In this document: positions 8,359 through 57,085 of the stretch, piece after piece
Layout: every line of letters starts with the position of its first letter
Numbering within the stretch: position 1 is the stretch's first letter
Source: Octopus vulgaris
Lineage: Eukaryota
Length of the DNA: 64,000 nt
Assembly (NCBI GenBank): GCA_951406725.2
Contig: OX597840.1
Location: forward strand, 39,060,001-39,124,000
Reading direction: 5' to 3'
Program-made: the position numbers and the translations under genes
Notes under the pieces: generated by a model
Told to the model about the DNA's origin: nothing
Database searches by the model: none
Seen by the model: the letters and a program-made list of their open reading frames with translations, nothing else

Positions 8359-8447
8359 TTCATACATGCATACATACATACATATATATATATATACCAG
8401 TGACTGGACAAGAAAAAGATGGGCAGACAAGAAATTTATTAGGAGTA

Positions 8448-8603
8448 ACATGTATGGATCAAAACAGTTTGATTCAAGTTCGTCTGTACTCCGAGTTTCG
8501 AGCGTATTTTTAGTATTCATCCATAATGGCCGAAGACTACCATCACGCTTGAGTCTCGGAGTACCAACGAATTTGTATCAAACTGTTTTGATCCGTAAGT
8601 GTT
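8448..8603. repeat. Imperfect inverted repeat (~70-bp arms)
   Basis: GGATCAAAACAGTTTGAT..GTACTCCGAG versus CTCGGAGTAC..ATCAAACTGTTTTGATCC. Confidence 0.8.
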
Positions 8604-16178: not shown

Positions 16179-17409
16179 ATATATACATATATATATAGGT
16201 ATGTCCATATATATCTGTATATATATATATCTGTATATATATATTTGCCCGCGCGCACATATGTGTGTGTGTGTGCCTCTATTTCAGTTTCCCATTGTCT
16301 GATTGTCTCTATCTCTCATTCGCTCTCATGTTCCCTTACCGCTAAACTACCCCACACATCTTTCCTATCTCTTTCATATCAAGACGTCCATACTTGTCTA
16401 TCTCAACCTCTCTCTCCTTCACTCTCTCATTCTCGTTCTCCTTCTCTCTCTCTCTCTCTCTCTCTCCTATTCATATTCTTGGCCCTCATATATGTGTGTA
16501 TGCATGTGTGTGCGTACGTATATATATACATATATTTCTATATCTCTCTGTCAATTTATTAAAATTCTCTCCCGATGTTATTTCATTATTGTTATAATAA
16601 ATTGTATAATAAACATCGTTTCTTTGTTTTCCATTCCTCCATTGTTTAATTAACTTCTTAAAATACAGAACTACTCTCAGACTGATAACACAGATAAAAT
16701 ATTGATAGAGTTTAAAAGAATATTAACACACTGCCACCGGAAGCATTGTTTCAATGATCGTCTTTGACTGCCAAAGAACACTGAAATCATATTCAAAGAA
16801 TTCAAAATAAGTCGTGAACGGTTTAATACAATCTTGTTAGACCAAACGCGATACTCACCAATTATATTACAAGATATTTAATGGGAGTCTAGAAATAATC
16901 CATCATAAAACTAGATTACGAAAGCAAACTATGGTCTCGAGAACAAAAAAATGAGAGACTTCTCATAAACAAAAAAATAATGAAATTTAGTTTAAATGTT
17001 AATAAAAGAAAATGTATTAATTATTCATTCGTGAATTGTTTTTGAAATTTTTTTTAATAAAATGTCTTCTAATAACTTGGAAAGTGCTTTAATCTATAGT
17101 TGTAAGGATTCCCTATATCTTCTCTGAAGATAATGAAATGTAGAATACTGATGTTCACGATTGCAAAGATCTAATGCTGGCCCGATAGACGAGGGCCCTT
17201 AAACACGGGGGTACTTTTGTTATACAGTAGAAGACGTGAATTCTGTTTTGAGAAAAGCCCTGCCCCAGGAGGATACATTAAGTGGCTTACCTAACACCAA
17301 GACAATATATTTGTACAAAACAGAACAACTTCAAAATGTGACCTCATGTGTACCGTTGGCGATCTTTTTTTCCTCTGTATTCCCTTCTCTGGATCTTTCC
17401 TTCTCCTAT

Positions 17410-17444
17410 GTTTCCGACGAAGAGCTCCGCTCGAAACGTTAGAC
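17410..17444 (+). ncRNA. Minimal type I hammerhead-like motif with CCGACGA (U4C) core
   Basis: GTTT-CCGACGA-A-GAGC TCC GCTC-GAAA-CGT-T-AGAC; ACGT palindrome in place of stem III; lies in a ~200-nt element (17335-17548) sharing CCTGAGCGT with the 57590 family. Confidence 0.6.
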
Positions 17445-17754
17445 CCTACTTCTTCCCTTCTTTCCTGAGCGTCCAATAATACTTTATTTGTTCCACGTCC
17501 TCGCGTTGTTGTGTTTTTTTGTGTTTTGTTGTTTGGATTAACTTTATAATGAGACGAGGTGGGGGAGGTAATGAGCGGCTACCAAATAATTAATACAACT
17601 AATTAATAATCAGTTATAGAAATGAAATTACATGGGGAATATCACCGGTCAAGTTATGCATATCATATGAGATGGTAACCTCTGATCTAAAAGAAAAGAA
17701 GGCCGCAGAAACAGCGAAAAAATGACATTTCCCTAATGCGTATATATCATTCGT

Positions 17755-24604: not shown

Positions 24605-24897
24605 TATTAGGGAGTAAATCCAAACTTACAGGGAAAAATTAGATTTAGGATTAAATCTAATTTTACAGTATAATATAAATTAAATTAGAGATAAAACCAC
24701 TCTTAGGCAAATCAAACAGTGAAAAACATAAACCAATACGTAGAAATAAAATTAGTTAATATAATATACAAAATATATAAAATATAAAATTTAATTTTGT
24801 ATATTATATTAATTATTTTTATTTCTATGTTTTTGGTTTATGTTTTTCACTGTTTGATTTGCCTAATAGTGGTTTTATCTCTAATTAAATTTATATA
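24605..24897. mobile_element. Asymmetric fold-back element in (TA)n
   Basis: Arms ~24672-24773 and ~24794-24897 (TAGGCAAATCAAACAGTGAAAAACATAAACCAA / TTGGTTTATGTTTTTCACTGTTTGATTTGCCTA); unpaired tail 24605-24670. Confidence 0.85.
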
Positions 24898-24908
24898 TAT
24901 ATAGATAC

Positions 24909-31480: not shown

Positions 31481-32003
31481 ATATGTGCGCGTATGTGTTT
31501 CTCAGAATATGTATACGCGTGTGTGTACGTGTTTATTGAATATATATATCTATATGTATAAACATTTTTGTGTGATGTTTTACGGCACAAGATGCGAAAT
31601 ATGTTTACAGAAAAACAAGCGAGAAAATAACGTTGTTTTCAATTTCACAATCTACGCAAATATATAAAATAAAATAAAATAAAAAGAAAAACCATTATTT
31701 CGATAACAGTTGGACTCTAGCGAGAGGTATGTGGTTACTTTTCATTCATCGCTTGTCGTTCCATCATTAATGCATTATCTACATTGTTATGAACATACGA
31801 AGACAAAAACACATCAATGCCAACAACAACAACAACATCAGGTGCACCATCAACAACAAAAATAACACTTAGTTTACTGTTCCTGCTGATATTATATGTT
31901 TGCGCGTGTGCACGAGCCTGTGTGAGTGTATGTGCAATAATTAAATATCTTTATATATACATATATATAAACATATATGTATATATATATATATATATAT
32001 ACA

Positions 32004-32289
32004 AAAATAAGCAACAAGAATGAATCCGGTAATTTGGTGCAATTGTTTCATACTATAGACATTTTATTAAAAGCTGTAAATATTACAGCAGATTTAAGAT
32101 TTAAGATTTAAGATTTACAGCTTTTAATAAAATGTTGTAGTATGAAACAATTGTACTAAATTACCGGATTCATTCTTGTTGCTTATTTTTTATTATAATC
32201 ACCCCGGATATTTTTATGGGTAGCACCATACAAAATTCTGGTGCATCTAAATTAAGTACCATATACATTTGAATCTAAATTGTTGCTGA

Positions 32290-32339: not shown

Positions 32340-32421
32340 GGTCCCGGGTTGATTCGGAGTTAACCACAGTAAATAAGGTACTCAATACATGGCAGAGTAA
32401 ATTAATTTATTTTATAGAAGG

Positions 32422-32471
32422 AGCTTTACAGGACTAGAACTGTTTCATTCAAATGAAATCATCAGGAAGCT
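32422..32471 (-). ncRNA. Type I hammerhead ribozyme motif, mirror copy with a 1-nt deletion at the cleavage site/stem I junction
   Basis: Minus strand AGCTTC-CTGATGA-TTTCATTTGAAT-GAA-ACAG..CTGT-A-AAGCT. Confidence 0.75.
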
Positions 32472-32556
32472 TGGTGTCAGGAATAGTTTTGGCATTTATA
32501 CATTTAGGCAGATTATCTGCCTAAATGTATAAATGCCAAAACTATTCTTGACACCA

Positions 32557-32607
32557 AGCTTCCTGATGATTTCATTTGAATGAAACAGTTCTAGTCCTGT
32601 AGAAGCT
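32557..32607 (+). ncRNA. Complete type I hammerhead ribozyme motif
   Basis: Stem I AGCTTC/GAAGCT; CTGATGA 32563-69; stem II TTC/GAA with U.U closing; GAAA 32582-85; stem III ACAG/CTGT; predicted cleavage after GUA at 32601. Confidence 0.85.
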
Positions 32608-32611
32608 CCTT

Positions 32612-32661
<50 letters not shown>

Positions 32662-33733: not shown

Positions 33734-33793
<60 letters not shown>

Positions 33794-33798
33794 GCAGT

Positions 33799-34115
33799 GT
33801 GGAAGATGTTTATGAGCCACTTAAGAAACACACAAGACCGTTAGATTCACTTCAACATTTAAATTTAATTTGTCAAAATATTTTCGCCGCAAAATATTTT
33901 CGTGCTGCATGTATGCAGCACGAAGCTTTGTCAGTGAAGAGGTCGCGGTCTCAAAGCGACGAAAATATTTTGACAAATTTAATTTAAATGTTGAAGTGAA
34001 TTTAACGGTTTTTATGTGTTTCCTAAATAGCTTACAAACACCTTCAACGCTCCAATTATTTTCGTTCCAGCACACGATCTCAGATCAAGTCACTCTCTAT
34101 GCAAGTACATCTCCG
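33799..34115. mobile_element. Asymmetric fold-back element carrying an HHR, in (TA)n
   Basis: Arms 33799-33890 and 33956-34048; tail to 34115; (TA)n on both sides. Confidence 0.85.
33927..33977 (+). ncRNA. Minimal type I hammerhead motif with C3G core change
   Basis: TTTGTCA-GTGAAGA-G-GTCGC..GCGAC-GAA-AATATT-T-TGACAAA; perfect 7-bp stem I, 5-bp stem II, palindromic stem III. Confidence 0.75.
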
Positions 34116-36152: not shown

Positions 36153-36448
36153 GTACGTTTATATATTTGTTGTGCAAGATTTTTTACATGAAGTTGTGTG
36201 TTGAAACAGATATTATTATATTTCGGAATGGTCATTTTGCCAGTTTAGCCAATAAAAACACACGCACTATATATTTGGTGTTGTTTTGCTTCAGTGTTAT
36301 TTATTTTTTACATTAAACTTAATCTTATTAATCTGACCGAAATAAGATTAAGATTAATGTAAAAAATAAATAACACTGAAACTAAATGACACCAAATATA
36401 TAGTGCGTGTGTTTTTATTGGCTAAACTGGCAAAAGGACCATTCCGAA

Positions 36449-36460
<12 letters not shown>
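36153..36460. mobile_element. Asymmetric fold-back element between microsatellites
   Basis: Arms 36211-36329 and ~36342-36460 (TGCCAGTTTAGCCAATAAAAACACACGCACTATATATTTGGTGT and its reverse complement); tail 36153-36210. Confidence 0.9.
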
Positions 36461-37384: not shown

Positions 37385-37437
<53 letters not shown>

Positions 37438-37819
37438 GGGATAAAATTCGACAGGAATAAATTGGTAAATGTTTTTCATCTCTAAATTTATTCCTGTCGA
37501 ATTTTATCCCCAATTTTTGTGGTTATAGACCTAGCTGTTCTTTCTAGCGTTTAGAATCCCTATAAGTGGATTTCTTATGTGTTTAAATATACAGTATCTC
37601 GTCTGACTAATATATAGTCTTTTTGACTAAATTTTTTTTACACCTTAGACCACTGGAAATGTAAATTTTAATTATTTTCCATTTCTCTTTGCTATGATTA
37701 AATATATATATGCATATATATCTATATAAATATGAGAGGGATGTTGTGTGTGTGTGTGTGTGTGTGTGGTTCTGTGTGTGTGTCTGTGTATGTGTATGTG
37801 TATGTGTGTGTCTGTGTGT

Positions 37820-50019: not shown

Positions 50020-50234
50020 CACAAAATTCAAAGGACTGACCACTAAAAGTGGACGGTCAATATGCTAGATATAGCAATTTTGACGTCTATATTTAGCATA
50101 TTGACCGCCCACTTTTAGTGGTCAGTCCTTTAAATTTTGTATGTAAAAAATATTTCAATCTTCGGATTTTTATAATATGCTAGGCCACTGGTTTTAATTG
50201 ATTAATATCAATTTCTACCCTATATTATATTATG

Positions 50235-56322: not shown

Positions 56323-56781
56323 GTGTGTACGAGTGTGACTACGCCTTCTGCGTGACTGTGTAAATACAATTGCGTATATTATAAAGCACAATTTTTGCCT
56401 TTCAAATAGTAATGTATTATTCATGACACATTTGATAAACTGTTTTGATTTAGAACAAGTTCGATGTTTGTTTCCATACAAGACAGCTGGATATAAGTAA
56501 CATAATCACAGAAAATAAAATCATACATCGATATCTGTTCAAAACCTATTGTTGCAGAATTTTTCTGAAAGTTACTTATCCTCCCACCTATAACTAACAC
56601 AAGATTATTAAAAATATTTTCAGCAAAAACAGAGACTCACAAGTTTATTTATAAGAAGTTGACCTTCTACCCGCTATTGTTCGCTAAATGACATTCGTGT
56701 TTGCTCAGAAAGATTCATAAAATGTGATATAGTATCGGACCCTTTTCTGGTTTCCTGAAATTCTGGATTTCAGAAAAACTG

Positions 56782-57049
56782 TATATACACATACGAAGGG
56801 GAGACAAACACCCCCAACCGCCGGAACTGCATCTAGGGACACCGTGTTTCAGGACAATGATCCTGAAACACGGTGTCCCTAGATGCAGTTCCGGCGGTTG
56901 GGGGTGTTTGTCTCCCCTTCGTATGTGTATATAAGCACACAGGATAAAATGTGTCGAAGCTGTCAGGAGGCGTTCGATGCCTCCTAGGGCTATATAACGG
57001 TGGTGTACCCCCTACTGTCACGTTCTTGTTAGATTGACAGTATACAACC

Positions 57050-57052
<3 letters not shown>
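56782..57052. mobile_element. Young fold-back element: perfect 73-bp arms, 6-nt loop, unpaired tail
   Basis: 56782-56854 is the exact reverse complement of 56861-56933; tail 56934-57052 runs into (TA)n. Confidence 0.92.

Positions 57053-57085
<33 letters not shown>

Follow-up and report, generated by a model that had tools for sequence, protein, structure and literature searches.

A perfect fold-back in Octopus vulgaris DNA and the head-to-head insertions of a 364-bp element with a hammerhead motif

The DNA considered here (the window) is a stretch of 64,000 nucleotides from Octopus vulgaris (assembly GCA_951406725.2, contig OX597840.1, positions 39,060,001 to 39,124,000 of the forward strand). 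It is AT-rich animal DNA with many microsatellites, taken from an assembly of 2.8 Gb, and its longest perfect inverted-repeat pair raises the question of how a palindrome of this kind comes to be tipped with what looks like a ribozyme helix. An exhaustive scan places the arms at 56782-56854 and 56861-56933 (73 bp, spacer CAATGA), and the tip reads AGGA-CAATGA-TCCT-GAAACACGGTGTC-CCTAG. An earlier sequence-only reading had described the same arms and had taken the tip for stem II of a type I hammerhead; it went on to propose that a cDNA truncated just after stem II had snapped back on this hairpin and primed its own second strand, so that the helix of the ribozyme would seed this inversion and the other fold-backs of the window as well. 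The arms and the tip sequence are confirmed by our scan, and the DNA fold of 56770-57060 (-120.7 kcal/mol, z -23.8) is matched by 0/200 shuffled sequences. The mechanism is a different matter and is the subject of what follows. Papers are cited for the portions of their text that were accessible.

The element behind the fold-back

A genome search with 56855-57052 returned 43 full-length matches at 98-100% identity among the 54 matches listed (the best 40 of 1768 candidates were scored). The element that they belong to has a unit of 364 bp (spacing 364-365 bp) and occurs as monomers, natural dimers and one trimer. No ORF is attached to it in 184 loci, and tblastn matches to reverse transcriptase (RT) stand apart from it. 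The fold-back in the window is almost certainly a truncated head-to-head insertion of this 364-bp ORF-less element, which carries a type I hammerhead motif, and it is made up of the following features (window coordinates; loci elsewhere in the genome are numbered with the prefix L).

56782..56854, minus strand: inverted short arm, element unit 173-245 (stem II 3' strand to the internal TATATA), 73/73 identical to the unit
56782..56787, no strand: TATATA common to the left flank and to the element's internal UAUAUA (unit 240-245), likely a minor priming or joining site
56851..57052, plus strand: forward long arm, unit 163-364, ending at the tail-less end A (..ACAACCATT), 99% over 202 nt against the natural unit of L009
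56851..56864, plus strand: hammerhead stem II and its loop, AGGA-CAATGA-TCCT
56851-56854: AGGA, part of stem II and the 4-nt microhomology of the inversion junction
56865..56877, plus strand: GAAA box, near-palindromic stem III and GUC triplet, with a predicted cut after 56877 in an intact copy
56878..56882, plus strand: 3' strand of stem I, CCTAG, whose partner CTAGG is absent from the window copy together with the CCGATGA box
57053..57081, no strand: (AT)n run, likely the target site

The junction uses exactly the 4-bp complementarity of stem II. The short arm lies wholly within the long arm and lacks end B, the second of the two 3' ends of the element, and the left end shares 6 nt of homology with the flank, with no (AT)n run beyond those; the flanks of the two sides are unrelated to each other. 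No Rfam match was obtained in the window at the gathering score, as expected for a copy that holds only half of the motif.

The half that is missing from the window is supplied by longer copies, as had been predicted for non-inverted ones, and these read ..CTAGG-CCGATGA-AGGACAATGATCCT-GAAACACGGTGTC-CCTAG. The prediction was right in placing CTAGG and a core box directly upstream; the box, however, is CCGATGA and not CTGANGA, and stem II follows it directly, with no spacer base, in 68/71 copies. Around the core, intact copies have stems I, II and III in the type I order (CTAGG/CCTAG, AGGA/TCCT, AC..GT, with GUC), which bears out the assignment of the tip to stem II, and CCGATGA stands where the type I consensus has CUGANGA. 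An exact pattern for the intact motif gives 223 matches genome-wide, and the box is CCGATGA in 98 and CTGATGA in 2 of the first 100 of these that were listed. Copies from loci that were chosen without the intact-motif pattern give CCGATGA, a U4C change, in 68/71, the GAAA box in at least 68/71 for each column and an invariant GTC (71/71). U4C is a known natural hammerhead variant of much lower activity in vitro (PMC3088659, accessible text), and self-cleavage of the element is predicted from its motif. Stem III, which the sequence-only reading called palindromic, is near-palindromic (ACAC-G-GTGT): the computed duplex allows it to pair between two molecules, at -10.7 kcal/mol and with a central mismatch, and dimer-acting animal hammerheads with such pairing of stem III have been described (PMC4209133, accessible text). 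The unit RNA as a whole is predicted to form a long rod, in which 96-150 would pair with 195-245 and the hammerhead would sit at the tip. At 17406-17445 the window holds a second, unrelated minimal hammerhead motif that has the same U4C change (CCGACGA..GAAACGTT) and a relative in L201.

Copies of the element stop at one of two 3' sites, A (..ACAACCATT) or B, about 57 nt further. End A followed by AT repeats has 107 exact matches genome-wide, and end B has 70 matches. An (AT)n run adjoins 94/100 A ends, which were partly selected for this adjacency by the search pattern (end A plus AT repeats), and 84/90 B ends. The (AT)n targets, 5' truncation, partial tandems, head-to-head inversions and optional tail of ~57 bp are all Penelope-like marks, and the element, a young, small repeat, is likely mobilised by a Penelope-like enzyme.

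A mobilising Penelope-like partner is what we infer for it. The genome does have intact 781-aa RT and GIY-YIG ORFs, but homology of the unit to an autonomous element was found at none of 69 GIY-YIG loci (out of 148 matches and 6136 candidates). L215-L232 make up a young autonomous Penelope-like family with these intact ORFs, 95-99% identical, and it carries a U3-A8 hammerhead-like variant (TTGATAA). A further motif resembling a hammerhead, at L203:20-70, has a comparable stem II (AGGG-CAACAA-CCCT-GAAACATGTC), yet its box is TTGATAA.

Where the inversions break

The 184 loci amount to 145 distinct insertions and contain 105 head-to-head junctions in all. As an unbiased set we have used insertions picked by 3'-end patterns only, consisting of 99 of the 100 listed A-end places, the window copy and the first 30 of the 70 B-end places; with one segmental duplicate left out the set holds 113 insertions, and 88 of these are inverted head-to-head. 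Perfect fold-backs are a known sequencing artefact and the window's exact junction occurs once, with 1 exact match in the genome, so that a chimera of the assembly, or a DNA rearrangement that came later and had nothing to do with retrotransposition, has to be considered. We hold this to be very improbable, given that 88/113 family insertions are inverted in the same way, that both outer ends of the window copy lie on family-typical or recurrent sites and that its two flanks are unrelated.

Stem II does not seed these inversions generally. It spans unit 163-176 and receives 6/176 arm ends where 6.8 are expected under a uniform spread, and both arm ends fall within it at 1/105 junctions, the window's own, which rules it out as a breakpoint hotspot and refutes the general snap-back mechanism that had been proposed for it. 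The uniform spread of breakpoints that, by the sequence-only reading itself, would speak against a favoured seed is not what is found, since the arm ends are unevenly distributed along the unit (chi-square 102). They are most concentrated at unit 225-252, which forms the foot of the predicted rod and has 40/176 of them; the intervals 164-179 and 96-147 have 5 and 4. As junction sites the hairpin stems were each used about once, namely stem II (the window), stem I (L011, 6 nt), 248-267 (L040, 6 nt) and 277-297 (L114, 7 nt).

A smaller pile-up, 17/176 arm ends at unit 148-163, is located on the 5' half of the hammerhead, five of the ends being at 154-155, where CTCTAG/G resembles a splice acceptor; in D. 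virilis Penelope an intron end is described at stem I (PMC4209133, accessible text). A 3.5-kb insert with two tandem ORF1-like (zinc-knuckle) stretches splits one copy at a GATATC site (L006:2790-6310, unit 122-126), and L001, L027 and L165 likewise begin at unit 122-123.

The self-cleavage site is weak at best as a 5' end of templates, with 3/176 arm ends at unit 190-191 and 2/23 non-inverted ends at 190-192. Most long arms run through it, and the templates would thus be mostly uncut or circular.

The nine other fold-backs of the window, for which stem II had also been offered as the mechanism, have no sequence homology to the unit and a tip of helix plus GAAA in 0/9, so that this explanation is ruled out for them. 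Imperfect fold-backs that adjoin (AT)n are located at 24669-24901, 36211-36459, 37434-37515 and 32003-32190 and are probably older Penelope-type inversions, and by eye those at 629-962, 8447-8603, 33788-34059 and 50021-50140 resemble miniature inverted-repeat DNA transposons.

Tails, arms and the joining of two cDNAs

The ends of the 88 inversions follow a nearly strict pattern, with one end A and one end B in 78, two A ends in 2, two B ends in none and a non-standard or unread end in 8; because the A-end pattern guarantees one A end in most inversions, the informative ratio is 78 to 2. The 78 include 8 whose tail is of a diverged subfamily, in addition to 70 others. A second family in the window behaves in the same manner. 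The near-perfect fold-back at 32405-32624 (fold-back 32427-32601, 1-nt spacer) belongs to an unrelated Penelope-type family and has one tailed and one tail-less end, and A is paired with B in 8/8 fully read inversions among 30 loci of that family (one cut by the locus edge, one duplicate). This family has 901 candidates genome-wide, weak RT homology in L276 and a CTGATGA..GAAA motif, its fold-back tip in the window being about 37 nt upstream of the CTGATGA box.

The arms themselves are equally informative. In a target-primed snap-back the long arm is the template of the short one, so non-nested arms are incompatible with it, and in 41/66 simple inversions neither arm is contained in the other. 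Of 60 clean A/B inversions, 42 have the A arm extending further in the 5' direction and 12 the B arm, and 6 are level; in 31/60 the longer A arm contains no tail sequence, so the tailed arm cannot have been copied from it. Six junctions are zero-loop palindromes, and these count against folding because a folded single strand cannot pair them. Microhomology of at least 2 nt is found at 40/54 gap-free junctions versus 15% in simulations, an excess that may be somewhat inflated, since overlaps were observed by mismatch-tolerant extension and simulated by exact extension, and in a count that leaves out the 34/88 junctions with gaps or diverged bases. At a polymorphic site both arms agree in 18/20 insertions (9.9 discordant expected), and recurrent variants, some of which are CpG changes, are common to both arms in 222 cases and differ in 34. 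Arms that agree in this way derive from one source molecule or locus, and two random RNAs of the pool are disfavoured as their templates. In departure from a simple independent model, the two arms of an inversion tend to reach similarly far (Spearman 0.48), and near-level junctions are overrepresented, with reaches within 16 nt of each other in 16/60 inversions as compared with 5.6 by permutation.

In the twin priming of L1, a single RNA is primed from two target ends, and microhomology joins the resulting cDNAs into an inversion whose two pieces are adjacent and do not overlap. In the octopus insertions, by contrast, the arms overlap across one and the same 3' region, and they begin at two fixed sites separated by 57 nt. 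Biochemical work on a Penelope-like protein from anole is pertinent here: in vitro the protein cuts and extends both target strands, two RNA start sites bound the tail, the protein is predicted to be dimeric and ribozyme cleavage is not required (PMC11167929, accessible text). Taken with these results, the pairing of A with B, the non-nested arms, the common variants and the microhomology make twin priming the most economical reading. A Penelope-like RT/endonuclease would nick both strands of an (AT)n run, and each of the two target 3' ends would start a cDNA on the same RNA molecule, as a rule one from A and the other from B. Synthesis of both would then halt, often at nearby positions, and one cDNA would either be extended along its partner or anneal to it by 2-7 nt of complementarity, which any small stem or palindrome in the element could provide. 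For the window copy this would mean priming at A from the right target end and at the internal UAUAUA (unit 245) from the left one, with the cDNAs meeting at stem II.

The unit, its tandem arrays, the (AT)n sites, the two 3' ends A and B and the anatomy of the junctions are observed directly, and on balance we favor, with a little more confidence than an even choice would merit, the view that the arms of the window copy are two separately target-primed cDNAs joined at the 4-nt complementarity of stem II, the element likely having been moved by a Penelope-like enzyme. Several points stand against twin priming, among them the lack of a homologous autonomous partner at the 69 GIY-YIG loci. The short arm of the window copy is nested and without end B, which a snap-back would fit equally well, and the excess of near-level junctions is what a fold-back would give. 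It must further assume that both enzymes stop together on one RNA, and the common variants do not separate it from fold-back models.

For the window copy the snap-back would start with a cDNA primed at A that came to a stop after stem II and folded on the 4-bp helix; self-copying as far as unit 245 and joining to the left flank via TATATA would follow. The nested short arm, the 4-nt microhomology with its 6-nt loop and a left end with 6 nt of flank homology and no (AT)n run beyond are what it would leave, and self-priming was already proposed in 2013 as the cause of the head-to-head palindromes at Penelope junctions (PMC3846280, accessible text). To this extent the original proposal is compatible with the locus that inspired it, but most inversions of the family, the 41/66 with non-nested arms, cannot have arisen that way, and the window's stem II junction is unique in the genome. 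The cDNA hairpin of stem II is weak, at -1.1 kcal/mol alone, whereas three further hairpins in the unit have -3.2, -6.3 and -6.9. Unit 245 is also where a long arm ends, against an (AT)n run, in L028, pointing to a minor priming or later deletion point, and in L040 a 6-bp hairpin-stem junction of exactly the window type is found in an insertion that is not snap-back compatible. We therefore regard the snap-back as rather unlikely even for the window copy.

Folding may also be invoked for the family as a whole, if a cDNA started from B folds or jumps on itself and the endonuclease later trims one or the other strand at A ahead of integration, so that just one of the two ends keeps its tail. Such a hairpin intermediate accounts for the pairing of A with B, for both polarities, for the common variants and for the excess of near-level junctions; Craig et al. 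attribute the tail to endonuclease resolution of an intermediate (PMC8557442, accessible text), and end A finishes in ATT, the motif cut by the anole enzyme (PMC11167929, accessible text). It requires, however, that priming occur away from the target and that a nicking enzyme integrate a DNA hairpin, more hypothetical steps than twin priming needs, many of the loops would be hundreds of bases long, and the six zero-loop junctions and the start of reverse transcription by the anole enzyme at both tail-bounding sites (PMC11167929) speak against it. We judge it to be a doubtful explanation, and more so than the snap-back is for the window copy.

Returning to twin priming, it may be extended to Penelope-type head-to-head insertions in general, although we offer this only tentatively and with slightly less than even confidence. 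A dimeric enzyme would use each tail-bounding start site once, one per target strand, on a single RNA; the enzyme that trails would tend to halt level with the leading one or shortly behind it, and any small stem or palindrome, hammerhead stems I and II included, could serve to join the cDNAs.

Relation to known elements and significance

The element has the makeup of a non-LTR retrozyme, a short ORF-less tandem unit with one hammerhead each. It resembles the animal members of that class (Cervera and de la Pena 2020; Li et al.; PMC7229834 and bioRxiv 10.64898/2026.07.22.740005, accessible text) in unit length (364 bp here and 350-390 bp in mussel), in having one type I hammerhead motif per unit with a 4-bp stem II and a near-palindromic stem III, in its highly self-paired RNA fold and in the presence of autonomous Penelope-like elements in the same genome. 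It differs in its CCGAUGA core box (U4C) and in that its copies are mostly dispersed, truncated and inverted rather than arranged in long arrays. Neither inverted insertions nor tails are described in the accessible text of those two papers.

With Penelope-like elements (PMC3846280, PMC8557442, PMC4209133 and PMC11167929, accessible text) it has in common an inverted 5'-truncated copy, a tail on one arm, (TA)n targets, microhomology junctions, a hammerhead motif and junction palindromes, whereas it lacks an ORF, its tail is about 57 bp as compared with 30-40 bp, and the 69 GIY-YIG loci gave no homologous autonomous partner. The tail is called optional in those papers, as far as their accessible text goes, and it is the near-strict rule of one tail per inversion and the non-nested arms that are counted here. 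Twin priming of Penelope-like elements, or the one-tail rule as a count, was not found in the literature within our search, which lay outside supplements and subscription papers (e.g. the original Drosophila Penelope papers) that may state it.

An inversion seeded by a ribozyme helix is thus a one-off in this family, and the snap-back idea had already been published. The value of the family lies elsewhere, in over a hundred near-identical short insertions, which document in nature how Penelope-type integration proceeds; its cycle is called unresolved in the papers cited here. Given the one-tail rule, the non-nested arms and the common source variants, twin priming can be tested directly against fold-back in the in vitro system already published. 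Twin priming in its general form, if true, would account at the same time for tails, for inversions and for those junction palindromes so far interpreted as self-priming. Finally, a young and successful family that is fixed for a weak U4C core bears on whether such ribozymes need to cut at all.
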